NCBI GenBank assembly: GCA_028288595.1
Contig: JAQBNK010000033.1
Location: 26 to 64,025 of the forward strand
Reading direction: 5' to 3'
DNA: 64,000 nucleotides
DNA from: Chitinophagaceae bacterium
GTDB taxonomy: Bacteria > Bacteroidota > Bacteroidia > Chitinophagales > Chitinophagaceae
The translations under genes and the position numbers were made by a program. The notes under the pieces are model-generated. The model saw only the letters and a program-made list of their open reading frames with translations. It did no database searches and was not told where the DNA came from. Shown piece by piece: positions 9,331 through 46,836 of the stretch (position 1 is its first letter; every line of letters begins with the position of its first letter).

Positions 9331-9891
9331 ATGAAGATTTATGTAAAAAACATGGCCTGTGAAAGTTGCAAAGTTGTGGTTAGGGTTGCCTTGGAAGAAC
9401 TCGACATTCATGCAGTAAAAATAGAATTAGGTGAAATAGAAACGAAAGCAGATGTTACCGACGATGAAAAACGACAACTAAACCGCATTATCAAAAAAGC
9501 AGGTTTGGAATTATTAGAAAAAAAACAGGGGATAATAATTGAGAAGATCAGGAAAGTGATGGTTGATTATGTTTATAATTCAGACGAAAAACCTACCGCT
9601 AATTTTTCCACTTTATTAAGCAGGGAGTTAAATCATAATTATACCTACCTGTCCAACTTTTTTTCCGAGATAGAGGCTACAACGATAGAGCAGTATGTTA
9701 TTTCTTTGAAAATAGAAAGAATAAAAGAGTTAATTGTTCTCGAAGAATATTCACTTTCAGAAATTGCAAATAAGTTGCATTACAGCAGTGTTGCGCATTT
9801 ATCCAACCAGTTTAAGAAAGTAACCGGGGTAACGCCATCACATTTTAAAAGACTAAAAGAGAAAAGAAGAATCACCATCCAGGAATTATAA
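9331..9891 (+). CDS. AraC-family transcriptional regulator with N-terminal HMA-like CxxC domain
   Basis: 186 aa. The N-terminus is MKIYVKNMACESCKVVV (a ferredoxin-fold metal-binding-like M-x-C-x-x-C). The C-terminus is an AraC HTH (LSEIANKLHYSSVAHLSNQFKKVTGVTPSHFK). Confidence 0.75.
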   Translation: MKIYVKNMACESCKVVVRVALEELDIHAVKIELGEIETKADVTDDEKRQLNRIIKKAGLELLEKKQGIIIEKIRKVMVDYVYNSDEKPTANFSTLLSRELNHNYTYLSNFFSEIEATTIEQYVISLKIERIKELIVLEEYSLSEIANKLHYSSVAHLSNQFKKVTGVTPSHFKRLKEKRRITIQEL

Positions 9892-9903: not shown

Positions 9904-11247
9904 TTAAAACTGAAGCATGAACGCCGTACCCTCGCCCATTACAGACTGAACCTGTATATTTCCTTTATGCAGCAACATGATCTGTTTGCATAAACTCAGA
10001 CCAATACCACTTCCGTTTTTCTTCGTACTAAAGAAGGGAATAAAAATTTTATCCAGCAATTCTTCTTCTATTCCTGAACCGTTATCAGCAATGCGAATTA
10101 TTTTTCTTTTAAAAGACGTTTCATACGCTGTTAAAGTAATTTTTGGTTGCGGCCTGTCTTTCACTGCTTCGATTGCATTGATAATAAGATTGATAACAAC
10201 CTGTTCAACGAGTTCGGGGTCGAGCTCAATATTCAATTCGGGTTCTTTCAATAAAATTTCGAGTTCAATATTTTTCTGATCGAGTGTGGGTTGCATTAAC
10301 TGGTGCATGGTGCTGAATAGTTCCCGCACATATACTTTCCGAACATTAGGTGTAGTGATCTTATTCAGGTTGCGATAAGTCTCGGCAAATTTCAGAAGTC
10401 CCTCGCTTCGTTTGCGGATCGTGGCAATTCCTAATTTAAGGTCTTCCCACTCACCCTCATCCGCATCTATACTCGCAACAGATACAGCCAGCCTGTTCTC
10501 CAGCGTATTTGCAAGCGATGATATAGGCGCAACCGAATTCATGATCTCATGTGTAAGTACACTTAATAATCTTTGCCATGCCTTCGATTCTGTTTCATCC
10601 AGCGCTTCATCAACATTCTGAAAAGCGATCAGTTTATATTTTCTCGAATCTGTTTGAAAAGCAGTTGCGGATAACAACATTTTAAAAGTGCGATTGTCCA
10701 CATGTGCAGTAGCAATCTTTTGATCGCCGGGTTTAATGTCCAAAACAAGTTGCGCTAATTCAGAATCTCTTTTAGTAAGGCTGCTAACCGTTTTTAAATA
10801 CGGAAGGCCCAATAATTTTTTTAGTGATTCATTCATCCATACTACTTCCCCGGTTTCAGTATCGAAAGAAAGAATACCGGTATCTACCAGCTCCAGTATC
10901 TTTTGTAAATATTGATACTGTGTTTCTTTTTCCTTACTGATAACCTTAAAAGTGGTGTTGATATCATTAAAACCTTTTCTTAAAGCTTTAATTTCCATTG
11001 GCGCATTGCGCACATTAAAATAGCGGGAGAAATCACGATAGTGTATAGACTCAACAAACTCTTCAACTTCCTCCTGTGCTTTGCGGTGAAGACGATAAAA
11101 ATCCGCGATCTGCATCAATATTACAGGAACAAGAATGATCTCATAAACGTACCACTCTTTAAAAACACAAAATGACGCCACGCTAATAACGGCCGTCATC
11201 AGCACCACCTTCACCAGGATCAGCCATTCATTCTTTTTATATGTCAT
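9904..11247 (-). CDS. sensor histidine kinase (two N-terminal TM helices with a minimal loop, PAS-like region, HisKA, HATPase_c)
   Basis: 447 aa. TM1 is roughly aa 8-29, the loop is KEWY, and TM2 is roughly aa 34-51. The H-box is LSVLTHEIMNSVAPI, and the ATPase boxes are NLIINAIEA and DNGSGI ... GSGIGLSLCKQIM. It overlaps the response regulator gene by 11 nt. Confidence 0.85.
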   Translation of the reverse strand: MTYKKNEWLILVKVVLMTAVISVASFCVFKEWYVYEIILVPVILMQIADFYRLHRKAQEEVEEFVESIHYRDFSRYFNVRNAPMEIKALRKGFNDINTTFKVISKEKETQYQYLQKILELVDTGILSFDTETGEVVWMNESLKKLLGLPYLKTVSSLTKRDSELAQLVLDIKPGDQKIATAHVDNRTFKMLLSATAFQTDSRKYKLIAFQNVDEALDETESKAWQRLLSVLTHEIMNSVAPISSLANTLENRLAVSVASIDADEGEWEDLKLGIATIRKRSEGLLKFAETYRNLNKITTPNVRKVYVRELFSTMHQLMQPTLDQKNIELEILLKEPELNIELDPELVEQVVINLIINAIEAVKDRPQPKITLTAYETSFKRKIIRIADNGSGIEEELLDKIFIPFFSTKKNGSGIGLSLCKQIMLLHKGNIQVQSVMGEGTAFMLQF

Positions 11248-12598
11248 ATTTACTTAGTCTCCGGTATAAAGCAGTACGGGTTAACCCGAGTTCTTTCGCT
11301 GCTTTGGTAATATTACCCTGGTGTTTTTCGATCACTTTCAGGATCGTGTTTTTTTCCATTGTACTCAGCTTGAAATCGGCGGGTTCATCACTCATCGTTA
11401 TTTCACCGGTACTTGATTCAATAGGAGAAAATAAGAGATCTTTTTCAGATAATACACTTCCTTCAGCCATGATCATTGCTCTTTCGATCGTATACTGTAG
11501 CTCTCTCACATTGCCAGGAAAAGGATATTGCTGTAATTTTTTCAATGCACCGTCTGCCAGTTCAATATTATTCTTAAAATATTTTTTCTCATACATCTTT
11601 AAAAAATGTTTCGCCAGCAGTGGAATGTCATCAGGTCTTTTTCTTAATGGGGGAACGGTGATCTCTACAGTATTGATCCGGTAAATAAGATCCTTCCTGA
11701 AGCGGTTCTCATTCGCCATTTCTGATAAAGGAACATTGGTTGCGCAGATGAGCCGTATGTCTACGGGCACAGGTTGATTGGCGCCCAGCCGCGTTACCTG
11801 CCGGTTCTGCAAAACAGATAAAAGTTTCGCTTGTTGCTGCAGGCTGATATTTCCTATTTCATCAAGAAATAAAGTACCGCCATTGGCTGTTTCAAATCTT
11901 CCCACACGGTCTTCTCTGGCATCTGTAAATGCTCCTTTTTTATGCCCGAACAATTCACTCTCGAACAGAGATTCTGTAAGCGCACCTACATCCACTTTTA
12001 CAAAAGGCTGGTTTTTACGGAGCGACCTGTCATGTATGGCTTTCGAAATAAGATCCTTACCAGTTCCGTTCTCACCCAGTATTAAAATATTAGCGTCTGT
12101 AGGCGCTACTTTTTCAATCTTATAAAAAATGTCCTGCATTATTTCAGATTCGCCCAGCAGGTCTGATGCTGAAAAATCAGGTGCGTGTTTTTTTTCACCC
12201 GCAAATGCAGGACTTTTCTTCAATGCTTCGGAAATCGTTTCTACTAATTTTTCGTTGTGCCAGGGCTTTACAACAAAATCAGCGGCGCCTTCTTTTAGCG
12301 ATCTTACCGCCAGGTCAATATGACCATAAGCTGTGATCATGATCACGCAAACAGAAGGCTGCATTTCTTTGATCCGCTTCAGCCAGTAAATTCCTTCGTT
12401 GCCGGTATTAATAGAACTGTTGAAGTTCATATCCAGCAAAACCAGGTCGTAATGTGGCTTTGCCAGTAACGAAGTAATATTTTCCGGGTTCTTTTCAGTA
12501 ACCACTTCTTTTACTTCTGTTTTCAGCAAGAGTCTGACCGCAGTCAGTACATCGGGGTCGTCATCAATGACGAGTATCGAACATTTTTTAAGGTTCAT
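11237..12598 (-). CDS. sigma-54-dependent (NtrC/Fis-family) response regulator
   Basis: It has a REC domain (ILVIDDDPDV ... LLDMNF), an AAA+ domain (Walker A GENGTGKD, ESELFGHKKGAFTDA as a GAFTGA variant, LFLDEIG) and a C-terminal Fis HTH (GNITKAAKELGLTRTALYRRL). ATG 12596-12598 is preferred over the TTG at 12613 used by the track. Confidence 0.9.
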   Translation of the reverse strand: MNLKKCSILVIDDDPDVLTAVRLLLKTEVKEVVTEKNPENITSLLAKPHYDLVLLDMNFNSSINTGNEGIYWLKRIKEMQPSVCVIMITAYGHIDLAVRSLKEGAADFVVKPWHNEKLVETISEALKKSPAFAGEKKHAPDFSASDLLGESEIMQDIFYKIEKVAPTDANILILGENGTGKDLISKAIHDRSLRKNQPFVKVDVGALTESLFESELFGHKKGAFTDAREDRVGRFETANGGTLFLDEIGNISLQQQAKLLSVLQNRQVTRLGANQPVPVDIRLICATNVPLSEMANENRFRKDLIYRINTVEITVPPLRKRPDDIPLLAKHFLKMYEKKYFKNNIELADGALKKLQQYPFPGNVRELQYTIERAMIMAEGSVLSEKDLLFSPIESSTGEITMSDEPADFKLSTMEKNTILKVIEKHQGNITKAAKELGLTRTALYRRLSKYDI

Positions 12599-12687
12599 AG
12601 TAGTGAATCGCAAAATACATTCTATTAATATACCATTTTCCTAATTAGCTCTAACTGAGTGGATTATTTTTTTATTACCGCAAGCAG

Positions 12688-12714
12688 GGTGTATCAAAAC
12701 CGTACACCTGTTGT
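12688..12714. promoter_or_regulatory. conserved palindromic element, copy A (GGTGTA-n9-TACACC + CTGTTGT)
   Basis: ggtgtatcaaaaccgtacacctgttgt. It is near-identical to 40559-40585 and 18/21 identical to 51834-51854. It sits in the divergent regulator/adaptor intergenic region, 203 nt upstream of the adaptor start. Confidence 0.55.
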
Positions 12715-12830
12715 TCAGAAGCGGACGATAAGCCTCGTAAATAAATTACTTAGCAATTCATTTTCAAACAGTTAAGGTTCTGGCACTAATTTGATAAATA
12801 TCCTGTCAGTGTTTCTCATGTGCAATATTG

Positions 12831-12860
12831 AACCGGGTGTTTTTACACCGGGTTATTTTT
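12831..12860 (+). terminator. terminator-like leader hairpin upstream of the adaptor gene (candidate attenuator)
   Basis: aaccgggtgt (12831-12840), loop tttt, acaccgggtt (12845-12854), then attttt. This is a perfect 10-bp stem plus a T-tract on the plus strand, 31 nt before the GTG start at 12891. No upstream plus-strand gene exists for it to terminate. Confidence 0.5.
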
Positions 12861-12890
12861 AAAAATTTCTAAACTAAAACTTAAAAAACC

Positions 12891-14147
12891 GTGGACAGAG
12901 TCGTTGCCAAAAAGAGATGGAGCCGTAAAAGAATTCTTACAATCGCAGCAATAGTTGGTATTGTGGCATTAATAGCAGGAAGCGTTTATTACACATCAGG
13001 AAAATCAAAATTGAATGTAGACACCGAGCGCATTACTGTAAGCACTGTCACCAAGGGCCCCTTCCAGGTAACCATTCCGGTAAATGGCATTGTATTACCC
13101 ATCAGCACAATTTACCTGGATGCCACTGAAGGCGGAAGAGTAGAAGAGAAATATGTTGAAGATGGCGCAGTGATGAAAAAAGGCGAGCCTATTTTGAGGC
13201 TTTCCAACACAGATCTTACCCTCAATCTCGTAACCCAGGAAACATCGGTATATAATTTATTAACCCAAATGCAGATAGCCCGTACTGCGGCCCAGCAGAA
13301 TACGGTTTCTAAACTGAACCAGATGACAGATGTAGATAATGCATTGAAAGAAGCTGAAAGGGTCTACCTGCTGGATAAACATTTATACGAGCAGAAAGCA
13401 ATTGGGTCGCAGGAATACAAACAGGCTGAAAACAATTATAATTACCAGTTACAAAAGAAAAAGCTGACACAACAAATATTAAAACAGGATTCTGTTACAA
13501 CGAACCAGGGTGTGGCACAGGCTAAACAATTATACGACGGATCACAAAACGCTTTGCAGCTTACCCGTAAAAAAGTAGGTGACCTGATTGTAAGAGCGCC
13601 GGTTGACGGACAACTAACATCGCTTGATGCAGAGATAGGACAAAATAAAAATAAAGGTGAGCGCCTGGGCCAGCTGGATGTGCTGAGCGGGTTTAAAGTA
13701 CGTGTAGATGTTGATGAACATTATATCTCGCAGGTATATACGGGTTTACTTGGCACTTTCACTTTTGCTGATAAAAATTATACACTGAAAATTCAAAAGA
13801 TCTATACGCAGGTTACGAATGGCCGTTTCCAGGTGGATATGATGTTTGTGGGTGCGGTTCCGCAAGGTATCCGTCGCGGGCAAACACTGCAGATCTTATT
13901 AGCGTTGAGTGACGAAACACAGGCTATCCTTCTTCCTAAAGGCGGTTTCTACCAACAAACCGGTGGTAACTGGATATTTAAAGTAAGCGATAACGGCAGC
14001 ACGGCTTTTAAAACCGATATACAATTAGGAAGACAGAATACTGATTACTACGAAGTATTACAGGGATTAAAACCAGGAGAGAAAGTAGTGACATCCAGTT
14101 ATGAAAATTATGGGACGATGCAGGAACTGGTGCTGAAGAAGAATTAG
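12891..14147 (+). CDS. HlyD/MacA-family periplasmic adaptor (membrane fusion protein)
   Basis: 418 aa. It has an N-terminal TM anchor (ILTIAAIVGIVALIAGSVYY), a lipoyl/barrel segment, a long coiled-coil-like Q/K-rich hairpin (aa ~110-230), and LIVRAPVDGQLTSL, typical of MFPs. It starts with GTG, and there is no in-frame ATG nearby. Confidence 0.85.
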   Translation: MDRVVAKKRWSRKRILTIAAIVGIVALIAGSVYYTSGKSKLNVDTERITVSTVTKGPFQVTIPVNGIVLPISTIYLDATEGGRVEEKYVEDGAVMKKGEPILRLSNTDLTLNLVTQETSVYNLLTQMQIARTAAQQNTVSKLNQMTDVDNALKEAERVYLLDKHLYEQKAIGSQEYKQAENNYNYQLQKKKLTQQILKQDSVTTNQGVAQAKQLYDGSQNALQLTRKKVGDLIVRAPVDGQLTSLDAEIGQNKNKGERLGQLDVLSGFKVRVDVDEHYISQVYTGLLGTFTFADKNYTLKIQKIYTQVTNGRFQVDMMFVGAVPQGIRRGQTLQILLALSDETQAILLPKGGFYQQTGGNWIFKVSDNGSTAFKTDIQLGRQNTDYYEVLQGLKPGEKVVTSSYENYGTMQELVLKKN

Positions 14148-14168
14148 GAGTGATGAGTGATGAGTGAC
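14148..14168. repeat. 3 x heptamer gagtgat/gagtgat/gagtgac directly after the adaptor stop codon
   Basis: Read directly; it begins 1 nt after TAG 14145-14147. Confidence 0.9.
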
Positions 14169-14226
14169 GGATCAAACATTAAAATTTTAATTCGAAAATT
14201 GAAATAACCAAAACATAAACTAACAA

Positions 14227-14418
14227 ATGAAACTGCTGATACATTTACCGCTGCTGGCTTTCTGCCTGAGCCTGACGGGACCACCGCTGCAGAAAGCTGA
14301 TAGTTTTAAGGTGGTGGAAAAAGTAAAAACCAAAAAAATTTCGCAGAAGAAAGATTCGACAGACGCGGAAGAACCTATCTATCAATTTCTTCTTTCGATC
14401 ATAACAAATAAATTTTAA
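14227..14418 (+). CDS. possible small secreted/lipid-anchored Lys-rich peptide (63 aa), uncertain
   Basis: It is the only plus-strand ORF in the 348-nt adaptor-ATPase gap. The N-terminus is signal-peptide-like (MKLLIHLPLLAFCLSLTG) and is followed by a charged KVVEKVKTKKISQKKDSTDAEEP tail. I recognise no homology. Confidence 0.3.
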   Translation: MKLLIHLPLLAFCLSLTGPPLQKADSFKVVEKVKTKKISQKKDSTDAEEPIYQFLLSIITNKF

Positions 14419-35436: not shown

Positions 35437-37854
35437 ATGATTAGAAACTACTTCAAAACCGCCCTCAGGAATTTGAGCCGCCACAAAGGCTTCGCCATCA
35501 TTAATATTGCCAGTCTTACAATTGGCATAATCGGTTGTATGGCCATTGGTTTATTTGTGTGGGATGAATGGCAATTTGATAAAAGCATTGCCGGGGGAGA
35601 AAATGTTTACCGCATTTATGAAGAAAGAAAAGATAATAATACCGTTACATTCAATGCGCCTATTGCGCCGGCATTCGCAACTTTTTTAAAGCGACAGTAT
35701 CCTGAGGTTGATGAGACCGCGAGGATCATGATGTCGGGTGATAAATTCCTGATGGAAACTGGTGCCAAAAAAGGTTATGAAGAAAAAGGCTGGATCGTAG
35801 ACTCCACTTTCTTCCGCGTGTTTCCATTGAAGTTCCTTAAAGGCGATATTAATACAGCGCTTAATGCACCTTCTTCTATTGTTATTTCTGAGGAACTGGC
35901 AAAAAAATATTTCGGTAATGAAAACCCGATCGGTAAAGTATTGAAGATCGATAAAGGAGACCTGATGGTAAAAGGCGTATTAGCTAAACTGCCTGATCAT
36001 TTTCACCTGAACTTTAATTACCTGATGCCTATGTCGGCTGCCGGCCTTCCGAAAGCAAGAATGGAAAAATGGACATGGCAACAGTTTTTTACTTATGCAA
36101 AATTAAAGCCAGGCGCTAATGCACAGCTATTGCAAAACAAACTGCAGGCGTATGTTAAAAAAGAAATTTATCCAACATTCGAAGGTGCAAAATACCTGCC
36201 TTTCTTTCAGCATCTGTATGACATCCATCTTAAATCTGCAGACTTCATTTATGATAATGCAATCCGCGGAAATGAAACCTATGTGAAAGCATTAACGATC
36301 ATCGCATTGTTTGTGCTCATTATTGCCTGTTTTAATTTTATCAATCTCGCAACCGCGAGGTCATTCAGGAGAGCTAAAGAGATTGGTGTACGAAAAGTAG
36401 TGGGGGCAGACCGCAGGCAGTTAGTTTTTCAATTCATTGGTGAAACTGTTTTTCTTGCAGTTATTTCCATGATCATCGCAACAATAGCCACGGTTTTCAT
36501 TGTTCCGGCATTAAATAATTTTACAGATAAATCAATTGAATTCAATCCTGTTACTCACCCGCTTTTGGGATTATTTATTTTAGCAGCTGGCGTGGTCATC
36601 GGTATGCTGGCAGGTATTTATCCTGCTTTGGTGCTCTCTGGTTTTCAGCCGATCAAAGTTTTAAAAAGTATGAAACCGACTGGAGGCGGCGCAGGTAATG
36701 CGTGGTTGAGGCAGGCACTCGTAGTAATGCAATTTGCACTCTCTGCATTACTTATTGTTTCTACCATGATCGTTTACAAGCAAACAAAATATTTAAATAA
36801 TAAAGATCTTGGTTTCAACAAAGAACAAATTCTTTACTTCCAGATAAGAGGTGATGTGGAGAAAAACCTGGAGACATTTAAATCAGAGCTTAAGCGTTCA
36901 CCAAATGTGGTATCAGTCACTTCCGGTTATGGATTGCCGGGAGACCAGTTTGCCGGTGATGGCGTGAAGGTGCCGGGCAAAAATGACAATAAAGAATTTC
37001 CTTCCAGTGTATTTATCGGTGATTATGATTATATAAAAACGCTGGGTCTCAGAATTATTGCCGGAAGAGATTTCTCAAAAGATATGGCTACCGATGAGAG
37101 ACAAGCTTTTATTATTAATGAAACCGCAGTAAAAGAATTTGGTTTAGGTTCTGCGCAAAAAGCGATTGGTCAGCCGATTAGCTGGAACGAATGGGTGCCG
37201 AAAGACACAGCACATCCTGTAAAAGAAGGAAGGATCATCGGTGTGGTTCAGGACTTTCATTATAAGAGCCTGCATGAGAAAGTGAGCGCTTCCGTCATCC
37301 AGATCTATCCGCAGGTGGCCTTTAAAGTTGCTGTGAAATTGAAGACTGCTGACATGAAAGGCACAATCGCATTCATCAATAATATATGGAATAAATTTTC
37401 CCCTGGTTACCCGCTCGATTACAAGTTCATGGATGACAGCTATGGCAAAATGTATAAGAATGAAGAAAAGCTGAGTGATCTTCTTTGGATTTTCGCTTTA
37501 ATGGCCATCATCGTAGGATGCATGGGTCTCTTTGGTTTAGCGGCATTCAGCGCTGAGCAACGCACCAAAGAAATAGGAATAAGAAAAGTATTAGGCGCTA
37601 ACGTATTCAATATTGTCGCATTGCTTTCCAAAAACTTCCTCAAGCTCGTTTTAATTGCATCCATCATTGCTTTTCCGGTTGCATGGTGGGCTATGAATAA
37701 CTGGCTCGCAGATTTTCCATACAGGGTTAATATCAGCTGGTGGATTTTTGCAGTGGCCACGATTGTTGCTTTACTGATTGCATTGTTAACAGTTAGTTTC
37801 CAATCGATAAAAGCCGCAACAGCTAACCCCGTGAGAAGTTTGAGAACGGAGTGA
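35437..37854 (+). CDS. duplicated MacB/FtsX-type ABC permease, paralogue 9
   Basis: 805 aa. MIRNYFKTALRNL; NLATARSFRRAKEIGVRKVVGA; EQRTKEIGIRKVLGAN; C-terminus ATANPVRSLRTE*. Confidence 0.92.
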   Translation: MIRNYFKTALRNLSRHKGFAIINIASLTIGIIGCMAIGLFVWDEWQFDKSIAGGENVYRIYEERKDNNTVTFNAPIAPAFATFLKRQYPEVDETARIMMSGDKFLMETGAKKGYEEKGWIVDSTFFRVFPLKFLKGDINTALNAPSSIVISEELAKKYFGNENPIGKVLKIDKGDLMVKGVLAKLPDHFHLNFNYLMPMSAAGLPKARMEKWTWQQFFTYAKLKPGANAQLLQNKLQAYVKKEIYPTFEGAKYLPFFQHLYDIHLKSADFIYDNAIRGNETYVKALTIIALFVLIIACFNFINLATARSFRRAKEIGVRKVVGADRRQLVFQFIGETVFLAVISMIIATIATVFIVPALNNFTDKSIEFNPVTHPLLGLFILAAGVVIGMLAGIYPALVLSGFQPIKVLKSMKPTGGGAGNAWLRQALVVMQFALSALLIVSTMIVYKQTKYLNNKDLGFNKEQILYFQIRGDVEKNLETFKSELKRSPNVVSVTSGYGLPGDQFAGDGVKVPGKNDNKEFPSSVFIGDYDYIKTLGLRIIAGRDFSKDMATDERQAFIINETAVKEFGLGSAQKAIGQPISWNEWVPKDTAHPVKEGRIIGVVQDFHYKSLHEKVSASVIQIYPQVAFKVAVKLKTADMKGTIAFINNIWNKFSPGYPLDYKFMDDSYGKMYKNEEKLSDLLWIFALMAIIVGCMGLFGLAAFSAEQRTKEIGIRKVLGANVFNIVALLSKNFLKLVLIASIIAFPVAWWAMNNWLADFPYRVNISWWIFAVATIVALLIALLTVSFQSIKAATANPVRSLRTE

Positions 37855-37965
37855 GGAGTGATGAGTAATGAGTTGACAAGTTTTTTTGAGCCCGGCTGTA
37901 GAATATAATTGATCGTCCCTTGGTGATGGGTCAGCGGACAGAACGCCGGGTCAAAAAAGTAAAAA

Positions 37966-38016
37966 GTCAAAATTAAAAATTCAAAAGCACCGCCCTTTTG
38001 ACTTTTGAATTTTGAC
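37966..38016 (+). repeat. AT-rich 22-bp (20/22) hairpin built from t(t/c)(a/c)aaaa heptamers
   Basis: gtcaaaattaaaaattcaaaag (37966-37987), loop caccgcc, cttttgacttttgaattttgac (37995-38016). It ends 27 nt before the paralogue 10 start. Confidence 0.8.
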
Positions 38017-38043
38017 TTATCACCATACACAAAACCTGCTCTT

Positions 38044-40455
38044 ATGATAAAAAATTATTTCAAAACTGCTTTCAGAAATTTGAAGCGCAATAAGACTTAT
38101 GCATTTATTAATGCGATGGGATTAGCAGTGGGTATTGCAGCCTGCTTTTTAATATTCTTAGTTGTGCGGTTTGAAACAAGTTTCGATAATTATCATGCGA
38201 AGGGAAAGAGTATTTACCGGGTAGGTACAGCGTTTCACAACCAGGATGGTATTTCGTATTCTGAGGGTGTTTCATTTCCCGTTGCGAAAACATTACGATT
38301 AGATTTCCCGCAGATAAAACAAGTGGCTTCTCTTTACCGAAACAACGGGCAGATCACCGCACTGAACGGAAATGTGGAAATAAAGAAATTAAATGAACAT
38401 CATTTCTATTATGCAGAGCCGCAGTTTTTCAGCATGTTTGATTTTAAATGGTTAGCCGGCAATGCAAGAACATCTTTAAACAATCCCAATAATGCTGTGC
38501 TTACACAGGCAACTGCAGAAAAATTCTTTGGTAGCTGGAAAGCTGCACTGGGCAAGACGATCAAGTATGAGAATAAAGACCTTTATACGATTACAGGTAT
38601 CTTAAAAAATCCGCCGCCCAATACTGATTTCCCTTTAAGTATTGTAGTTCCTTACAGCGCCCTGCAGCATACTTATATCAAGAATAATCTCAATGATTGG
38701 GTGAGTACTTTCGGTGGCGCTTCTACGTTTGTCGTGCTTCCGCCGGAGCTTCCTGTTACAAAATTCAATGCGCTTCTAACGTCATTTGCTAAAAAACACA
38801 AGCCAGTCGAGTATGCTAAAGACGGATACGTTGCACAGCCATTATCAGAGATCCATTTTGATGAACGATTCGGTAATTACAGGAATCATACATTTAGTCA
38901 TTCACTGATTAATGCCTTATCACTCATCGGAATTTTTCTCATCGTTATTGCATGTGTCAATTTTATCAACCTCGCCACAGCACAGGCGGTGAACCGTTCC
39001 AAAGAAGTGGGTATAAGAAAAGTTTTAGGAAGTAAGCGTTCTCAACTCGCATGGCAATTTTTAGGTGAGACTGCGTTGATAGTAACTATTGCACTGGCCG
39101 CCGCAATTATTATTGCTGAATCGGCGCTCCCTTTCTTAAATAGTTTACTTGAAGTAGAAATAAAAATGAACTTCTTTACCGACCCTTCATTAATTCTCTT
39201 CGTGGTTTGCATGGCGGTATCTGTTACGATATTATCAGGGCTTTACCCTGCCATTATTTTATCAGGCTTTAGCCCGATCACAGCGCTGAAGAGCAGGGTA
39301 ACCTCGAAAATGGTGGGTGGAATTTCTTTGAGAAGAGGATTGGTGATACTTCAATTTTCGATAGCTCATGTACTGATCATCGGTATGCTGATCGTGGTGA
39401 GCCAAATGAATTTTTTTACTAACGCTTCACTTGGATTTACCAAAGCGGCGATCGTGAATGTACCCGTTCCGGGCGATAGCATTACCCATTCGAAGCTCGA
39501 TTACATGCGTGACCAGTTCAGGGCAAATCCAGATATCCAGGATGTGAGTTTTAGTTATGCAAGTCCATCATCAGCAAACAATAACTGGAGCAGCGATTTT
39601 AAATTTGATCACTCTCCAAAAAGTACTGACTTCAGCGCTGCACTGAAATGGGCGGATCCAAATTACTTTAAAACGTTTGACCTGAAGTTTGTTGCAGGAA
39701 GACCATATTTCTTAAGTGATACAATAAAAGAATTTGTGGTGAATGAAACGCTCATTCATAAATTGGGCATCACCGATCCAAAGCAGGCCATTGGCAAACA
39801 GATCAACTTCTGGGACGGTGGTAAAATAGGAAACATTGTTGGGGTGATAAGAGATTTCAACTCCTACTCTTTACGGGAACCCATGGCACCTGTAGTACTG
39901 AGCACATGGAAAGATGTGTACCAGACGATCAACATCAAAATAAAACCCGGCAGTGAAAAAGCTGTTCTTCCATTTATTGAAAAATTATGGACAAGCAGTT
40001 TCCCTGATTATGTATATGAATATAAATTCCTCGATGAAACTATCGAAAACTTTTATAAACAGGAAGAGCAACTATCACAGTTGTATAAAATTTTTGCAGG
40101 GATTGCGATTTTTATCAGTTGCTTAGGACTATACGGACTTGTTTCTTTTATGGCCGTTCAGCGAACAAAAGAAGTGGGTATAAGAAAAGTGTTGGGTGCT
40201 TCTGTTTCAAATATTATTTATCTGCTATCAAAAGAATTCTCACTGCTGATCATTATCGCGTTTATCATTGCAGCGCCTGTTGCCTATTTTATCATGCATA
40301 AATGGCTGCAGAATTATACTTACCGCATACATCTTGGTGCCATGATCTTTATAGTGGCACTTGGCAGTTCTGTTATTATCGCATGGATCACGGCAGGGCA
40401 CAGGGCGTTACAAGCTGCGAAAGCAAATCCCGTGAAGAGTCTTCGGACGGAATGA
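38044..40455 (+). CDS. duplicated MacB/FtsX-type ABC permease, paralogue 10 (subfamily with paralogue 4)
   Basis: 803 aa from ATG 38044. MIKNYFKTAFRNL; NLATAQAVNRSKEVGIRKVLGS; GGISLRRGLVILQFSIAHVLIIG; VQRTKEVGIRKVLGAS; C-terminus AKANPVKSLRTE*. Confidence 0.92.
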   Translation: MIKNYFKTAFRNLKRNKTYAFINAMGLAVGIAACFLIFLVVRFETSFDNYHAKGKSIYRVGTAFHNQDGISYSEGVSFPVAKTLRLDFPQIKQVASLYRNNGQITALNGNVEIKKLNEHHFYYAEPQFFSMFDFKWLAGNARTSLNNPNNAVLTQATAEKFFGSWKAALGKTIKYENKDLYTITGILKNPPPNTDFPLSIVVPYSALQHTYIKNNLNDWVSTFGGASTFVVLPPELPVTKFNALLTSFAKKHKPVEYAKDGYVAQPLSEIHFDERFGNYRNHTFSHSLINALSLIGIFLIVIACVNFINLATAQAVNRSKEVGIRKVLGSKRSQLAWQFLGETALIVTIALAAAIIIAESALPFLNSLLEVEIKMNFFTDPSLILFVVCMAVSVTILSGLYPAIILSGFSPITALKSRVTSKMVGGISLRRGLVILQFSIAHVLIIGMLIVVSQMNFFTNASLGFTKAAIVNVPVPGDSITHSKLDYMRDQFRANPDIQDVSFSYASPSSANNNWSSDFKFDHSPKSTDFSAALKWADPNYFKTFDLKFVAGRPYFLSDTIKEFVVNETLIHKLGITDPKQAIGKQINFWDGGKIGNIVGVIRDFNSYSLREPMAPVVLSTWKDVYQTINIKIKPGSEKAVLPFIEKLWTSSFPDYVYEYKFLDETIENFYKQEEQLSQLYKIFAGIAIFISCLGLYGLVSFMAVQRTKEVGIRKVLGASVSNIIYLLSKEFSLLIIIAFIIAAPVAYFIMHKWLQNYTYRIHLGAMIFIVALGSSVIIAWITAGHRALQAAKANPVKSLRTE

Positions 40456-40478
40456 GGAATGAGTAATGAGGAATGAGG
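40451..40478. repeat. four phased heptamers aatgagg aatgagt aatgagg aatgagg; the first contains the gene's own stop codon
   Basis: Read directly; the stop TGA at 40453-40455 is part of unit 1. Confidence 0.9.
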
Positions 40479-40558
40479 GAATGCAAGCTGCAAATTGACC
40501 ATTGAAAATTGAGCATTGAGCATTTAAAATAAATTGGTGAAATAAATTTCAGCGGGGC

Positions 40559-40585
40559 TGTGTATCAAAAACGTACACCTGTTGT
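40559..40585. promoter_or_regulatory. conserved palindromic element, copy B
   Basis: tgtgtatcaaaaacgtacacctgttgt. It matches copy A in 25/27 positions, and similarity continues for about 18 more nt. It lies in the 235-nt gap before paralogue 11, 132 nt upstream of ATG 40691. Confidence 0.55.
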
Positions 40586-40690
40586 ACGGAAACGAACGAA
40601 CCTGTATATATTATTGATCATAAATGGCTGTTTTTCAATAATATACAAACAGGCATCATTTATTCATATACAAAGAAAAATTCCTGCTTC

Positions 40691-43147
40691 ATGCTCACCA
40701 ACTACCTGAAGATCGCCTGGCGCAACTTAATGAAGAACAAGATTTTTTCTTTCATCAACATTTTCGGATTAACGGTTGGACTCACCTGTTGTATGCTGAT
40801 CTCGTTGTATTTAAAATATGAGACCAGTTATGATACGCATCATAAAGATGTAAGCAGGCTTTACCAGCTAGGAACCATTTTTATTAAGAGCGGGCAAAAA
40901 GAAGATAAAAGCGCCAACACTCCTGCGCCAATGGCCGAAGGATTGAAAAATGAATTTCCGGAAATCGAACAATCCACCAGGATACTGGGACTTTTTGGCG
41001 AAGACAAAACTTTGTTTCAAAGAGACATGGGTAAGGGAGAAAAGAAATCATTTTATGAATCGAAAGGTTATGTGACCGAGCCCACATTTTTTAAATTATT
41101 CAATTACGATTTTATTGAAGGAAATGCGACCACCGCCTTGCATGAACCCAACAGCATTGTTATCAGCCAGGAAATAGCGCAGAAATTATTTGATAAAGAA
41201 TCTGCGCTTAACCAGCGCATCCATATCAGCAGTAATACGAATGGTGATAGAGATTATTTGATCTCCGGTGTATTTAAACCTTCCGTTACTCCTTCTCACC
41301 TGCCTGCAAGATTTTTTATGAGCATTAAAGGTGGCGACATGGAAGGTTATATTAAAAATCATGGGAATGATTTTGCCAGCAATAACATGTTCTACACCTA
41401 CCTGAAGCTAAGGCCCGATGCAGATGCTAAAAAGCTGGAAGCGAAGTTTCCCTCCTTCATGAAAAAATATGCCGCTGAGGATCTGAAGAAAATGGGGTTT
41501 GATAAAAAACAATTTTTAATACCTGTAAAAGATATTCATTTATCCTCTGATGTTCCCCGTAATGCAACACCACCTGCAAGCAGAACTTACTTATACATTT
41601 TAGCTTCGATCGCGGTATTTACTTTACTGATCGCTTGCATCAACTTTATGAATCTTGCCACTGCGAGATCATCCAAACGTTCTACAGAAGTAGGCGTTAG
41701 AAAAGTATTGGGAGCGAAAAAAAATATTCTCATCTGGCAATTTATCGGAGAATCACTTTTAATGTCGGTACTGGCTTTTATGCTGGCCATAGTACTAACT
41801 GCTGTCCTGCTCCCGCTTTTTAATAAAGCATCGGGCCGGGAATTAAATATTTCGCAGTTAACCAATGGATGGCTCGTTGCCGGGTTTTTTGCATTAGCCA
41901 TATTAACAGGTTTACTCGCCGGCAGTTATCCTGCTTTTTATTTATCATCCTTTAAACCTGCAAGTGTATTAAAAGGGAAGTTCCAGAATTCATTAGCGGC
42001 AGTAAGTCTTAGAAAAGGCCTGGTTGTTTTCCAGTTTATTATTTCAGTTGTGTTGATCACTGCGGCTGTTATCATTTCCAGGCAAATGCAATACCTGCGT
42101 AAAGCGGATCTTGGATTTGCAAAGGAACAGCAGGTAATTATTCCATTACGCAGTGGCAATGCGAAGAACATGTACCAGGCATTCTCTACCCAGGTGAGGA
42201 ATGATCCGCAGGTTGCATCTGTAGGCGCATCGCTTTATTACCCTGGCATTTTTAACCCGGCTGATAATGGTTTTTATAAAGCGGGGCAAACCATGAATGA
42301 TGCAAAACGCACAAGAATGAATTGGGTGGATGTTGACTTTCTTAAAACATTAGGTGTCCAGGTTTTGGCCGGACGCTTATTTTCTGAAAAATTTCCTTCA
42401 GATACTTCTTTCAGGGTTGTGCTGAATGAAAAAGCAGTAAAAGATATAGGTCTCGGTACGGCACAAAAAGCGGTTGGACAAAAAGTATTCTTTGACTGGC
42501 AGGGAAAAAATTATGGATTTGAGATCATTGGTGTAGTAAAAGATTTTCATTTTGAAGACCTGCATTTACCTATTACTCCTTATGCGTTTCAACTGAACAC
42601 AGGCAATGGTTATAATTATTTGATGGTTCATGCAAAACAAGGAAATGTGCAACCATTGTTAGACCGCATGAAAATCTTGTGGCACAAGTATAATTCAGAT
42701 GAACCGTTTGAATATAGTTTCCTCGATGAAGACTTCCAGAGAAATTATGTAGCCGAAGACAGGCTGGCTTCGATCGTAAATTATTTTACACTGATCGCAA
42801 TTGTGATCTCCTGCCTCGGGTTATTTGGTTTGGCAACATTCAGTGCAGAACAACGCATTAAAGAAATTGGAGTAAGAAAAGTTTTAGGAGCAAGTGTATC
42901 CAGCATCGTTACTCTATTATCTAAAGACTTTCTGAAACTCGTAATCGTCGCAGTGGTTATTGCTTGTCCACTTGCATGGTGGGCGATGAATAAATGGCTG
43001 GAGGATTTCGCCTATAGAACAAATATTAGCTGGACGGTATTTGCAATAACAGCTTTAATAGCGGTAGTGATTGCATTATTGACAATCAGCTTCCAGGCAA
43101 TAAAAGCCGCGACTGCAAACCCTGTAAAGAGTTTAAGAACTGAATAA
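40691..43147 (+). CDS. duplicated MacB/FtsX-type ABC permease, paralogue 11
   Basis: 818 aa. MLTNYLKIAWRNL; NLATARSSKRSTEVGVRKVLGA; EQRIKEIGVRKVLGAS; C-terminus ATANPVKSLRTE*. Confidence 0.92.
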   Translation: MLTNYLKIAWRNLMKNKIFSFINIFGLTVGLTCCMLISLYLKYETSYDTHHKDVSRLYQLGTIFIKSGQKEDKSANTPAPMAEGLKNEFPEIEQSTRILGLFGEDKTLFQRDMGKGEKKSFYESKGYVTEPTFFKLFNYDFIEGNATTALHEPNSIVISQEIAQKLFDKESALNQRIHISSNTNGDRDYLISGVFKPSVTPSHLPARFFMSIKGGDMEGYIKNHGNDFASNNMFYTYLKLRPDADAKKLEAKFPSFMKKYAAEDLKKMGFDKKQFLIPVKDIHLSSDVPRNATPPASRTYLYILASIAVFTLLIACINFMNLATARSSKRSTEVGVRKVLGAKKNILIWQFIGESLLMSVLAFMLAIVLTAVLLPLFNKASGRELNISQLTNGWLVAGFFALAILTGLLAGSYPAFYLSSFKPASVLKGKFQNSLAAVSLRKGLVVFQFIISVVLITAAVIISRQMQYLRKADLGFAKEQQVIIPLRSGNAKNMYQAFSTQVRNDPQVASVGASLYYPGIFNPADNGFYKAGQTMNDAKRTRMNWVDVDFLKTLGVQVLAGRLFSEKFPSDTSFRVVLNEKAVKDIGLGTAQKAVGQKVFFDWQGKNYGFEIIGVVKDFHFEDLHLPITPYAFQLNTGNGYNYLMVHAKQGNVQPLLDRMKILWHKYNSDEPFEYSFLDEDFQRNYVAEDRLASIVNYFTLIAIVISCLGLFGLATFSAEQRIKEIGVRKVLGASVSSIVTLLSKDFLKLVIVAVVIACPLAWWAMNKWLEDFAYRTNISWTVFAITALIAVVIALLTISFQAIKAATANPVKSLRTE

Positions 43148-43215
43148 AAGAGCAAACAACTTGCAAGGTTGTCGACTCTACAATATAAAATCAGGAAACA
43201 CCAAAAACTACAACC

Positions 43216-45609
43216 ATGTTTACTAACTACTTTAAGATCGCATGGCGCTATTTATTAAAGACCAAGTTATATGCGCTGGTAAATATTCTGGGCCTTGCGC
43301 TTGGAATGACAAGCTGCCTGCTGATCGGTATCTACATTTTTAATGAACTGAGTTTCGATCATTTTAATAAGAATGCAAACAGGATAGTTCGTGCAACGAT
43401 GGATTATAATTCCGGCGATGCACCGAATACCACAGCAATGACCGGAACTAAGGTTGGACCGCAATTCAAAAGAACGTTTCCGCAGGTAGAAGCTTATGTA
43501 CGTACTATAAAGTACCCAAGAGTAATTGGTTATAAGGATAAAGTTTTCGATGAGAAACGGTTTCTCTATGCAGACCCTGCGTTTTTTAATGTCTTCTCAT
43601 TTAAACTGCTGAATGGTAATGCTGCAACAGTATTGGATGCGCCTGATAAAATAGTGCTGACACAATCCATGTCGAAGAAATATTTTGGTGATGAAAATCC
43701 CATAGGAAAAACGGTGACGGTGGGAATCAAACAATTGATTGTTTCAGGTATTGCAGCGGATGCTCCGAATAATTCACAGATCAAATTTGACTTTGTAAGT
43801 TCTTTTATGGGGTTTAGCTCAGCTAAAGAAGAAAAATGGTGGGAAGCGAATTATATCACTTATCTCCTGTTGCATAACGCCAGCGATATTCCTGTACTGC
43901 AAAAGCAGGTGGCCGGTTATATGAAAACAGTAAGCAGGGATGAATTGAAAATGACAGGTGCTAACAATTATCTTACTTATCATTTAGAGCCTTTTTTGAA
44001 AGTTCATTTGTATTCTTCGCTTGAAGGATTAGAGCCTAACAATAATATTTTATACATCTATATTTTGGGCATCGTTGCAATTTTAATTTTACTGATCGCC
44101 TGCGTGAATTATACGAACCTGAGTACCGCACAGGCCGCGGGCAGAAGCGCAGAAGTAGGCATGCGTAAGGTAATGGGTGCAGGAAAAATGCAGGTGTTTT
44201 ACCAGTTTATCTGTGAATCATTTTTGCTTACCCTCATTGCAGTTATCACCGGTGTTGTTCTTTCATTGATACTGCTCCCTTATTTTAATCAACTCTCAGG
44301 ACAGGAACTTACAACGGGTGTATTGTTTCATCCCGTGACTATCATTTCCTTATTACTACTTGCCATTATTGTCGCATTTATGGCAGGCGCTTATCCTGCA
44401 ATCGTTCTTTCGAATGGAAAGATTATACAGGTGTTAAAAAGCGGCTTCAATTTTACAGGCGGAAGTACCTTGAGAAAAACCCTGATCGTATTCCAGTTTA
44501 CGATTTCTATTTTTCTCATCATTGCAACGATTGTAATTCTGCAACAACTTTCATATGTGAGAAATAAGGACCTCGGTTATGATAAAGAGCACATACTTGT
44601 TCTTCCCGTGGACAGGAAGATGAGCCCTGATTATGACGCTATAAGAGCAGCCATCGCATCAGCACCTAATGTTGTTTCTGTGGCCGGAGCTTATGAAACA
44701 CCCACTGATATTGGCTGGGGGGATGGTATGCACAAGGGCACCGGTGATAATGAAAAAAGTGTAACGGTAAATGCATTTCCTGTTGATGAACATATTGTAA
44801 AAACACTGGGGCTTAGAATTATCGCGGGAAGTGATTATACAAATGCAGATGTGCAACAATTCGATACAAGTAACGGCGGTGAAAACCTTCACTATACTTA
44901 TATGCTGAATGAATCTGCTGTTAAAGCATTAGGCTGGACGCCGCAGGAAGCAATTGGCAAAACGATCACAAAAGGAAGAAGTGGGGTAGTTAAAGCAGTG
45001 ATCAAAGATTTTCATTTACATTCTTTTCATGAGCCCATCAATCCGCTCGTCGTATTTCTTGATAAGAGAATGGTACTCTCCATGTTTGTTAAGATATCAG
45101 GGAAAGATGTGCAGTCGACCCTGAATAGTCTTCAAAAAGTTTGGAAACAGCGGGTAACACATCGCCCTTTCGATTATCATTTTTTAGATGAAGAATATGA
45201 TGCGATGTACAAAACAGAACAACGCACTGCAGGTGTTTTCACCACGTTCGCCTCTCTTGCCATTCTGCTTGCATGTCTCGGGCTATTTGCACTCACGGCT
45301 TATACAATGGTACAGCGCACTAAAGAGATCGGCATAAGGAAAGTATTGGGGGCAACTATCCCTGATATTCTTTCCTTGGTGTCGAAAGACTTTTTGAAAC
45401 TTGTAATTCTTGCCCTGGTAATTGCTGTTCCTGTTGGATACTATGCAACCAATAAGTGGCTCGACAACTTTAGCTATAAAATAAGTATCACTCCATGGGT
45501 TTTTATAATTGCAGGGCTCGCAACTATAATTATTGCTTTTATAACGATCAGCGCACAGGCTATAAAAACAGCGATGGCTAACCCGGTGAAGAGCTTGAGA
45601 ACGGAATGA
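43216..45609 (+). CDS. duplicated MacB/FtsX-type ABC permease, paralogue 12
   Basis: 797 aa. MFTNYFKIAWRYL; NLSTAQAAGRSAEVGMRKVMGA; VQRTKEIGIRKVLGAT; C-terminus AMANPVKSLRTE*. Confidence 0.92.
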   Translation: MFTNYFKIAWRYLLKTKLYALVNILGLALGMTSCLLIGIYIFNELSFDHFNKNANRIVRATMDYNSGDAPNTTAMTGTKVGPQFKRTFPQVEAYVRTIKYPRVIGYKDKVFDEKRFLYADPAFFNVFSFKLLNGNAATVLDAPDKIVLTQSMSKKYFGDENPIGKTVTVGIKQLIVSGIAADAPNNSQIKFDFVSSFMGFSSAKEEKWWEANYITYLLLHNASDIPVLQKQVAGYMKTVSRDELKMTGANNYLTYHLEPFLKVHLYSSLEGLEPNNNILYIYILGIVAILILLIACVNYTNLSTAQAAGRSAEVGMRKVMGAGKMQVFYQFICESFLLTLIAVITGVVLSLILLPYFNQLSGQELTTGVLFHPVTIISLLLLAIIVAFMAGAYPAIVLSNGKIIQVLKSGFNFTGGSTLRKTLIVFQFTISIFLIIATIVILQQLSYVRNKDLGYDKEHILVLPVDRKMSPDYDAIRAAIASAPNVVSVAGAYETPTDIGWGDGMHKGTGDNEKSVTVNAFPVDEHIVKTLGLRIIAGSDYTNADVQQFDTSNGGENLHYTYMLNESAVKALGWTPQEAIGKTITKGRSGVVKAVIKDFHLHSFHEPINPLVVFLDKRMVLSMFVKISGKDVQSTLNSLQKVWKQRVTHRPFDYHFLDEEYDAMYKTEQRTAGVFTTFASLAILLACLGLFALTAYTMVQRTKEIGIRKVLGATIPDILSLVSKDFLKLVILALVIAVPVGYYATNKWLDNFSYKISITPWVFIIAGLATIIIAFITISAQAIKTAMANPVKSLRTE

Positions 45610-45612
45610 AAA

Positions 45613-45646
45613 TAATTTGACAATTCGGCAATTTGAAAATTTGAAA
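45613..45646. repeat. left copy of the direct repeat bracketing the DUF4097 gene
   Basis: taatttgacaattcggcaatt + tgaaaatttgaaa. The 21-mer is identical to 46725-46745, and the 18-mer caatttgaaaatttgaaa is identical to 46757-46774. Confidence 0.9.
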
Positions 45647-45683
45647 ATTAATACACAGACATACAACTCTAAAACAAAACAAT

Positions 45684-46727
45684 ATGAAAAAATATCTTTT
45701 ACTAATTGCACTGGTTGCCTTTGCAATAAATACGAAGGCGCAGCGCAATGAGGAAGAACCTTATATGACAAAGTCCCTGAAGAGCGATAATATAAAAAAC
45801 GTTGAAGTAAGAACTTCTGGTGGAAGTATCGGCGTAACGGGTATTACTTCAGGTGAAGCACGTATTGAAGTTTATATCTGGCCAAATAATAGCCGGGATG
45901 GAAATAGAATAACTAAAGAAGAAATTGACCGGCGACTACAAAACTATGATCTGAATATATCATCGGCAAATAACAAACTAACCGCTACTGCAAAAAGAAA
46001 AAAGCGTGAAGATGATGACTGGAAAGACGGCCTGAGTATTTCATTTAAAATTTTCGTTCCTGTAAATATTACTACTGATCTTTCAACGAGCGGAGGAAGT
46101 ATTGCCCTGGTTAATGTAACCGGTAAACAGGATTTTGCTACCAGTGGCGGAAGTCTTCGTATTGACAAGGTGAGTGGTAATGTACACGGCCGCACTTCAG
46201 GCGGAAGCATACATGTAACAGATTCTAAGGATGACCTGGATCTTAGTACAAGTGGCGGAAGCATTGATGCAAGGAACTGTAAAGGCATTCTTAAATTAAA
46301 TACATCGGGCGGGTCTCTTAACCTCGAGCAATTAGGCGGAACCATCACCGCACATACCAGTGGCGGAAGCATTCATGGCAGTAATATCGAAGGCGATCTT
46401 AGTACACATACATCAGGCGGAAGCGTTAAACTTTCTGATCTCAGCGGCAGCGTGGATGCATCTACCAGCGGAGGAAGTATGGACGTAACAATCAGCAACC
46501 CGTCTAAGTTCGTCAAGCTCCATAATTCTAGCGGCAGCATCGACGTTACGCTTCCCGGTAACAAAGGATACGATCTCAGGTTGTCTGGTAACCGCGTTAA
46601 AACACCCACACTGAATAATTTTAAAGGAACAATGGACGATGATTCCGTTAATGGCAGTATTAATGGTGGTGGTATTCCTGTTACTATTAATGCAGGCAGC
46701 GGAAGAGTTTATTTGACACTTAAGTAA
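45684..46727 (+). CDS. secreted DUF4097 (Toastrack-type) beta-repeat protein
   Basis: 347 aa. It has a signal peptide (MKKYLLLIALVAFAINTKAQ) followed by about 10 repeats of the (T/S)SGGS(I/L/V/M) strand motif at roughly 20-aa spacing, typical of the DUF4097 putative-adhesin beta-helix. Confidence 0.8.
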   Translation: MKKYLLLIALVAFAINTKAQRNEEEPYMTKSLKSDNIKNVEVRTSGGSIGVTGITSGEARIEVYIWPNNSRDGNRITKEEIDRRLQNYDLNISSANNKLTATAKRKKREDDDWKDGLSISFKIFVPVNITTDLSTSGGSIALVNVTGKQDFATSGGSLRIDKVSGNVHGRTSGGSIHVTDSKDDLDLSTSGGSIDARNCKGILKLNTSGGSLNLEQLGGTITAHTSGGSIHGSNIEGDLSTHTSGGSVKLSDLSGSVDASTSGGSMDVTISNPSKFVKLHNSSGSIDVTLPGNKGYDLRLSGNRVKTPTLNNFKGTMDDDSVNGSINGGGIPVTINAGSGRVYLTLK

Positions 46728-46818: not shown

Positions 46819-46836
46819 ATTAATAAAAAACAAAAC

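Follow-up and report, generated by a model that had tools for sequence, protein, structure and literature searches.

The 64,000-nucleotide stretch of a Chitinophagaceae genome analyzed here (contig JAQBNK010000033.1 of assembly GCA_028288595.1, hereafter the window) contains a 41-kb MacB-type efflux locus in which a conserved element occurs three times, each time upstream of a transporter gene. We propose, from the sequence and its conservation, that each element is very probably the enhancer, or upstream activating sequence (UAS), of the NtrC-family response regulator encoded at 11237-12598. Each consists of a tandem pair of 17-bp units of the form TGTATCAnnAnCGnACA, whose starts lie 22 bp apart, or about two helical turns, and is followed at a nearly constant distance by a promoter-like motif. 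An earlier reading made from the letters of the window alone (the sequence-only reading) had suggested that the elements are activating sites of the adjacent sigma-54 regulator, and this is now supported by the fixed distance to a TGGCAY motif, by the same transporter genes downstream and by orthologues of the regulator in about 49 related loci. The cassette of enhancer and promoter is conserved in many Bacteroidota genomes and is thus genuine, though of an ordinary regulatory type; it appears not to have been described before.

Three sites in the efflux locus

Three copies of the 19-mer TGTATCAAAAMCGKACACC are present in the window, with starts at 12690, 40561, and 51836 (sites A, B, and C), all on the plus strand. 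When up to three mismatches are allowed there are still three matches, compared with 0.04 expected, and none of 100 shuffles reached that number. With a two-unit weight matrix built from related loci, sites A, B, and C score 36.6, 38.2, and 30.0, that of B being the window maximum, while the best unrelated position in the 128 kb formed by both strands of the window scores 10. The copies have the sequences and coordinates that the sequence-only reading had given, and the genes it had named around them agree with our Pfam results. Its description of the element as palindromic applies to TGT...ACA, which is dyad symmetric, but not to the rest of the 17-bp unit, which is asymmetric and is repeated as a tandem direct repeat. 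A search of the window for the bare dyad GTGTA-N9-TACAC gives only three matches at one mismatch or fewer against 1.0 expected, which is not significant. Hence, specificity resides in the whole 17-19-mer and not in the dyad.

At site A, the distal unit TGTATCAAAACCGTACA (12690-12706, plus strand, as are all units, boxes, and promoters of the three sites) is an exact match and has the highest single-unit matrix score of the window (26.5), and the proximal, degenerate unit TGTTCAGAAGCGGACGA (12712-12728) follows 22 nt later, as identified by the 22-nt period and the two-unit matrix. Site B has the same order, with the distal unit TGTATCAAAAACGTACA at 40561-40577 (19-mer match and matrix) and the degenerate proximal unit TGTACGGAAACGAACGA at 40583-40599 (two-unit matrix). 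At site C it is the distal unit, TGTATCACTTTAAAACA at 51814-51830, that is degenerate (the two-unit score is for 51814-51852), and the proximal unit TGTATCAAAACCGGACA at 51836-51852, found by the 19-mer match and matrix, is what had been reported as copy C. The additional similarity of about 18 nt between A and B that was pointed out before is real and is the degenerate second unit, 22 nt on.

The three sites occupy the three longest plus-strand gaps of the array (292, 235, and 215 nt; the next is 150 nt), a ranking that counts as a gene an open reading frame (ORF) of 63 codons at 14227-14418. They had been placed among the five longest gaps. The site is always oriented toward the downstream gene and is present in 3 of the 19 array gaps. 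A scan of the window with the two-unit matrix found it in no permease-permease spacer of 150 nt or less, as the sequence-only reading had also noted.

Conservation of the cassette in related genomes

We scanned a collection with one genome per species (GTDB) with the pattern TGTATCAAAANCGNACACC and examined the related loci, at least 119, as 8-kb pieces; the counts that follow are for the matches listed. Nearly all come from Chitinophagaceae, Saprospiraceae, and other Bacteroidota, together with two Latescibacterota assemblies, the few in unrelated phyla being chance-like, and the closest relatives of the window locus are Chitinophagaceae assemblies. The only offsets at which a second, looser unit is located are +22 nt (53 sites) and −22 nt (28 sites). 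These partner copies, which are unbiased by the search pattern, give the unit TGTATCA-nn-A-n-CG-n-ACA, in which TGT-N11-ACA is the only symmetric part. In 74 of 120 sites, the motif TGG(C/T)A(C/T) starts 68-70 nt downstream from where the proximal unit begins, and the gene downstream encodes an adaptor (58), a permease (28), or an ATPase (8) in 94 of the 120. Both promoter and transporter gene are present at 85 sites and at least one of them at 102, leaving 18 with neither, of which about six are from other phyla and about four are truncated loci. Such matches were rejected as real sites and treated as chance, being mostly single copies in other phyla or unrelated contexts; one (L030) adjoins a transposase-like gene. 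Conservation of the element in orthologous loci, a check that had been proposed for it, was found, the cassette of site and promoter being shared by many Bacteroidota genomes.

Two further groups of matches are of a different kind. In two Bacteroidota assemblies, L045 (1201-1241) and L049 (889-929, both in motif-oriented coordinates), a good tandem pair precedes other response-regulator genes and not transporters. The downstream genes encode a REC-only protein and a protein with REC and a LuxR-type helix-turn-helix (HTH), TGGCAY is missing where the spacing would place it, and these pairs may be additional members of the regulon or a different use of the site. The two Latescibacterota loci (L029 and L110) have the unit upstream of permease genes in another phylum; their promoter sequences, TGGCACagtaaTTGC and TGGCACgattaTTGA, have the canonical −24/−12 (N5) spacing, and site and promoter are about 82 nt apart instead of 69 nt.

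The promoter and the intervening box

Logos of promoter and box were obtained from 83 unique sites anchored on TGG. The family promoter is TGGCAY-N4-TT(G/T)(A/T), usually ending in TT(G/T)A, and GGCA is its most conserved feature, with a position relative to the enhancer that is fixed within 1 nt. Upstream of it the logo shows TAA-N5-TTGawTATCAa-N4-TT, of which TTGawTATCAa-N4-TT covers positions −23 to −8 relative to the T of TGG. This box resembles the IHF consensus WATCAANNNNTTR, a resemblance of sequence only, and it is unusually close to the −24 element. The window sites have T(T/G)nnTTTTCA in common at the corresponding position, and we assign the A/T-rich, IHF-like boxes, by their resemblance to the family logo, to TTCATTTTCAAACAGTTA at 12757-12774 (A), CTGTTTTTCAATAATAT at 40628-40644 (B), and TTTATTTTCAGGCACCTA at 51882-51899 (C).

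At promoter A (TGGCAC-taat-TTGA, 12781-12794), 69 nt beyond the proximal unit, the promoter-matrix score of 25.9 equals the median of the training set and is the best of the window. We infer a transcription start near 12806-12807, which places the enhancer units at about −79 to −117, in keeping with the usual arrangement of activator sites, generally two or more at about 80-150 bp upstream with phasing on one DNA face. Promoter C (TGGTAC-atat-TTCT, 51906-51919) follows its proximal unit by 70 nt, precedes the ATG of ATPase 2 (51946) by 40 nt, and has the second-best score of the window (18.6). Promoter B (AGGCAT-catt-TATT, 40651-40664) scores 4.3 and lies 68 nt after its proximal unit and 40 nt before the ATG of permease 11 (40691); scores of 5 or more occur at just 24 of 127,906 window positions, and promoter B sits at the predicted distance. 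The hexamer distances of 92 nt (A) and 91 nt (B) from the G of GTGTA that were reported earlier are correct, but AGGCAC, taken to be the equivalent hexamer in C, is not the homologous element. It is part of the IHF-like box, and as a −24 element at +56 it was rejected with a promoter-matrix score of 0.5, compared with 18.6 for TGGTAC at 51906. Once TGGTAC is taken as the −24 element of C, the three sites agree in their geometry (69, 68, and 70 nt).

The invariant GG of a −24 element is found at all three promoters (TGGCAC at 12781, TGGTAC at 51906, and AGGCAT at 40651). The canonical −12 element (GG-N10-GC, TTGCW) is not found at any of them in the window, where the corresponding sequences are TTGA (A), TATT (B), and TTCT (C). 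The sequence-only reading had likewise seen no −12 GC at canonical spacing in any copy and had left the promoter class undecided on that account; the absence is confirmed, but it is a property of the whole family and not a defect of this locus. At 65 of the 92 listed sites, TT stands at +10/+11, counted from the T of TGG.

The regulator and its kinase

The presumed binder of the units is encoded on the minus strand at 11237-12598 (ATG at 12598) and is a sigma-54-dependent response regulator with matches to Pfam Response_reg, Sigma54_activat (4e-67), and HTH_8. The locus thus encodes an activator with a REC domain, a sigma-54-interacting AAA+ domain with a GAFTGA-type loop (here GAFTDA), and a C-terminal HTH. 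The gene at 9904-11247, also on the minus strand, encodes the cognate sensor histidine kinase (Pfam HATPase_c). Among the matches listed, about 49 loci, which represent many genera, have an orthologue of the regulator (62-75% identity) divergently upstream of the motif, and activator and motif thus occur together across genomes. Orthologues of the kinase lie beside the regulator in the related loci, mostly with 53-67% identity and with 42-45% in three marine Flavobacteriaceae-type loci. Among 41 full-length regulator orthologues, identity to the window protein is 0.84 in the HTH and 0.82 in the AAA+ core, compared with 0.25 in the linker preceding the HTH; the GAFTDA loop is kept and the recognition helix LGLTRTALYRRL is nearly invariant. 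At the level of sequence, this near-invariant helix matches the near-invariant DNA unit. The regulator is below every NCBIfam equivalog cut-off. One Logan metagenome contig (SRR13312994) encodes an identical regulator protein and has its genes in the order seen here.

Proposed mechanism

We propose that the sensor kinase would phosphorylate the regulator, dimers of which would bind the two units from the same side of the helix and assemble into an AAA+ ring. The DNA would then loop across the bent A/T-rich box, the regulator would contact the sigma-54 holoenzyme at TGGCAY, and ATP hydrolysis would open the sigma-54 closed complex. Cassette A would drive the adaptor-ATPase-permease array, and cassettes B and C would act as internal promoters that boost transcription again before permease 11 and before ATPase 2 and TolC, respectively. 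With three cassettes under one regulator, one signal would switch on the whole 41-kb MacB-type efflux locus.

The analysis yields a precise cis-regulatory code composed of the unit sequence, the 22-bp tandem, the 69-bp spacing, the putative bend box, and the promoter variant. The code belongs to a probable two-component sigma-54 regulon, present in Chitinophagales, Saprospiraceae, Sphingobacteriales, Cytophagales, and Flavobacteriaceae, by which MacB/FtsX-type efflux permeases in large arrays would be controlled. The motif would allow prediction of the regulon in any Bacteroidota genome and the design of reporter strains with which to find the inducing signal, and the approximately 90 promoters with a −12 element lacking GC form a natural set for studying sigma-54 recognition in Bacteroidota.

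Several observations weigh against this assignment. The canonical −12 GC has no counterpart in the family (GC is at the canonical +13/+14 in only 7 of the 92 listed sites), and the conserved TT(G) is one nt nearer to GG than in TGGCACG-N4-TTGC. Promoter B is a weak match and has A instead of T at the best conserved −12 position. No rpoN gene is found among the window ORFs that were scanned against Pfam, which were not all of the ORFs. Finally, the start codon of the adaptor is separated from promoter A by a terminator-like hairpin.

Alternative explanations

The deviating −12 element bears directly on an explanation in which the units do bind the regulator but the promoter is not sigma-54-dependent, being of the Bacteroidetes sigma-A type or another, and TGGCAY is something else. 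Besides the family logo without the −12 GC, it gains from the canonical scan for TGGCAC-N5-TTGC, which at two mismatches or fewer gives 54 matches in the window against 56.6 expected and is thus at chance level, and from positions +5 to +12 (Y-A-n-n-t-T-T-K), which are loosely like the −7 box of Bacteroidetes promoters. The consensus of that box is TAnnTTTG, and it is separated from a −33 TTG by 19-21 nt, whereas the candidate −33 TTG of the family is 25 nt away and so beyond that range. The canonical scan is uninformative here because the −12 element of the family deviates from the consensus on which it is based. Conservation that is highest in GGCA, at an enhancer distance constant within 1 nt, is a hallmark of a −24 element, and the regulator has a complete sigma-54 interaction domain with its GAFTDA loop. 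In addition, a study of Bacteroidia treats TGGCAC-N5-7-TGC as lying in the sigma-54 range (PMC12316311). The −24/−12 spacing of the family is within this reported variation, which does not account for the loss of the C. Overall, we regard a promoter of another class as unlikely.

Still less probable, in our judgment, is an operator of some other factor, either a repressor or the AraC/HMA protein encoded at 9331-9891, that merely travels with the transporter genes. The tandem pairs of L045 and L049, which stand before response-regulator and not transporter genes, would be at home in such a scheme. Against it, the sigma-54 regulator and its kinase are the only regulator beside the motif across genera, a comparison that did not cover conservation of the AraC gene near the motif, and the sites are at an enhancer distance upstream of the promoter and do not overlap it.

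The sequence-only reading had raised an RNA-level role on the grounds that the conservation between A and B, about 45 nt, is longer than a simple operator. That argument no longer holds, as a second direct repeat at exactly 22 nt explains the length, and such phasing has meaning for DNA and not for RNA. A structured leader or processing signal would be compatible with transcription of sites B and C by read-through from the upstream permeases, since no terminator precedes them, and GTGTA and TACAC could pair as a 5-bp stem. Yet site A precedes the transcription start inferred for promoter A, the TGT and ACA arms are invariant and not covarying, and there is no Rfam match at the gathering threshold in the window, with matches at chance level at E ≤5 in 12600-12900. 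We give an RNA-level element very little credence.

The array plainly grew through duplication of permease genes, and A and B are identical at 25 of 27 positions, yet the idea that the sites are passive remnants of module duplication or a dispersed repeat (of the repetitive extragenic palindrome or miniature inverted-repeat transposable element kind) without a function of their own can be set aside as almost certainly wrong, given that the 19-mer is exact across families and orders with a fixed promoter spacing, that it is also found in two Latescibacterota assemblies, and that the window has just three copies, all on the plus strand, in constant orientation, in a minority of the array gaps, and before module starts.

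Comparison with known systems

The enhancer reading can be set beside three known systems. At glnAp2 of enteric bacteria, NtrC, an activator with REC, AAA+, and Fis-type HTH domains, binds as dimers to two sites about 100 bp upstream, oligomerizes, and reaches the promoter by DNA looping. The cassette described here shares with it the two-component REC-AAA+-HTH activator and the paired sites on one DNA face upstream of a sigma-54-type promoter. It differs in the unit, in which only TGT...ACA is symmetric, compared with the 17-bp dyad TGCACC-N5-GGTGCA of NtrC, in the separation of the sites (22 bp rather than about 32 bp), in the −12 element without GC, and in the target, which is an efflux array and not nitrogen genes.

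The NifA system consists of a UAS of the form TGT-N10-ACA, an IHF site, and a sigma-54 promoter, of which TGGTAT and TGGTAC variants of the −24 element occur. The likeness extends to the TGT...ACA dyad, the sigma-54-type promoter, the TGGTAC/TGGTAT variants, and, by sequence resemblance, a putative IHF-type site between dyad and promoter. In contrast to the N10 of NifA sites, TGT and ACA are 11 nt apart here (TGT-N11-ACA), both in every copy and in the logo of the unbiased partners, the bases between them (TCA...A.CG) show conservation without symmetry, and the sites form a fixed tandem pair. NifA is a GAF-domain protein, whereas the activator here is a response regulator of the phosphorylated type. 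The third system, BceRS-BceAB of Firmicutes, is a two-component system that induces an adjoining ABC transporter with an FtsX/MacB-type permease. Two-component genes adjoin a transporter of this type here as well, but BceRS-BceAB has an OmpR-type regulator, a sigma-A promoter, and a single permease, in contrast to the sigma-54 activator, the tripartite arrangement with adaptor and TolC, and the approximately 14 permease paralogues of the window locus. By analogy, the cassette would work like the enhancer-promoter systems of NtrC/glnAp2 and NifA, most of whose defining features it has, the −12 GC excepted.

The closest published finding, which speaks for the proposed regulation, comes from an independent in-silico survey reporting that in Bacteroidia sigma-54 promoters are enriched ahead of genes for FtsX-type permeases (COG0577; PLoS One 2025, PMC12316311). 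As far as keyword searches of it show, it concerns the same axis of sigma-54 and FtsX permeases in Bacteroidota at the level of promoter enrichment only; keywords for the activator, an enhancer motif, the spacing, or the locus anatomy gave no hits there, and the supplements contain no class-specific promoter lists. Searches with the motif string and with combinations of sigma-54, Bacteroidetes, MacB/FtsX, and UAS returned no relevant literature on the unit sequence, the 22-bp tandem, or the regulon. The specific unit, the tandem, and the regulon therefore appear not to have been described previously, whereas the overall principle is already known.

The adaptor leader and a divergent element

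Between promoter A and the start codon of the adaptor, the plus strand contains, in this order, the box TTTCTCAT (12812-12819), a spacer (10-20 nt across the loci), a GC-rich hairpin, a T-run, and an A-run. The hairpin, identified by folding, is formed by AACCGGGTGT and ACACCGGGTT (12831-12854; the whole leader from the box through the T-run is 12812-12860), and its core at 12836-12849 was called terminator-like. Expression of the array from promoter A would accordingly need read-through or antitermination. Box and hairpin (−11 to −25 kcal/mol) are present in 19 of the 56 adaptor-type leaders compared, the window included, with differing stem sequences; single-sequence folds give the hairpin in all 19, and RNAalifold on a MAFFT alignment of the leaders gives no pairs, the hairpins being misaligned. 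By a strict pattern, the box leader is found in 14 of 57 adaptor-type leaders, which is far above background, compared with 0 of 27 permease or ATPase leaders. Loci that also have it are L001, L005, L011, L012, L021, L054, L060, L062, L063, L077, L089, L091, L095, L111, and L117. The box leader matches no Rfam family. A leader peptide was considered and rejected, as the ORFs around TTTCTCAT on either strand vary in length and sequence.

The leader is possibly an attenuator, a sigma-54-dependent small RNA, or a mask of the A-rich translation start region. We tentatively advance two linked proposals, which as a pair we hold to be doubtful: that sigma-54 of Bacteroidota may read a −12 element without GC that is one nt nearer to GG (TGGCAY-N4-TT(G/T)A), and that the adaptor transcript in a Chitinophagaceae subgroup to which the window belongs may start with the TTTCTCAT box and hairpin as a sigma-54-dependent attenuator or small RNA. 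If the former were true, scans with the canonical consensus would be blind to much of the sigma-54 regulon of the phylum; if the latter were true, efflux expression would have a second checkpoint.

On the minus strand, the promoter-like TGGTAT at 12635-12630 (context 12620-12667) is the third-best promoter-matrix match of the window (13.8); it precedes the regulator ATG by 37 nt and is 55 nt away from the distal unit of site A. In 23 of 86 loci its conserved form, TGGTATAATTG(C/T)AGCA, is located on the minus strand just ahead of the regulator-kinase genes, at a distance of 53-57 nt from the distal unit. The element is compatible with both GG-N10-GC and the Bacteroidetes sigma-A promoter (−33 TTG, 20 nt, TAtaATTG). 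It may thus be a second sigma-54 promoter, one that would imply autoregulation, or a sigma-A promoter, which the conserved form fits as well (TTG-N20-TATAATTG).

The efflux array and its transcription units

The first gene after promoter A encodes a HlyD-type periplasmic adaptor (12891-14147, plus strand, GTG start at 12891; Pfam HlyD_3). The array also contains an ABC ATPase and about 14 MacB_PCD/FtsX permeases of about 800 aa each, paralogues that match the ADOP family only below its cut-off. It continues, after site C, with a second ABC ATPase (ATPase 2, 51946-52617) and a TolC-type outer-membrane protein (52621-54060), both on the plus strand and assigned by Pfam. A hairpin like that of an intrinsic terminator, with a 14-bp stem and a T-run, is located at 54083-54113 on the plus strand, 23 nt after the TolC stop. 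In the scanned region (36500-56000), it is the only convincing plus-strand terminator and none precedes B or C, and it is likely the common end of all three units. We therefore take B and C to be, more plausibly, internal promoters that boost nested units. The proposal that the sites split the locus into at least three co-regulated transcription units survives as three promoter cassettes, but B and C are not clean operon boundaries.

Other features of the locus

The 63-aa ORF at 14227-14418 (plus strand) has a signal-peptide-like N-terminus, MKLLIHLPLLAFCLSLTG, and no family assignment. It takes up most of the apparent gap of 348 nt between the adaptor and ATPase 1, and the gene calls of L120, the matching metagenome contig, include it. 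Among the permease genes, an ORF of 347 aa (45684-46727, plus strand) has no Pfam match at E ≤0.001, and the products of all its neighbors are MacB_PCD/FtsX proteins with a length of about 800 aa; the ORF may be what is left of a decayed permease, or else an insert unrelated to them. Outside the array, a 1226-aa fusion of CheB, CheR, PAS, and histidine kinase domains is encoded at 58766-62446 (plus strand) and is adjoined by a separate CheB-type methylesterase at 62812-63807 (minus strand); both appear unrelated to the efflux locus. Short imperfect tandem repeats are located past the stop codon of permease 10 (gaatgaggaatgagtaatgaggaatgaggg and cattgaaaattgagcattgagcatt, 40450-40525) and past that of the adaptor (ggagtgatgagtgatgagtgacgg, 14148-14172), in both cases on the plus strand, and similar low-complexity repeats are present in intergenic DNA of related loci such as L020, L050, and L088.

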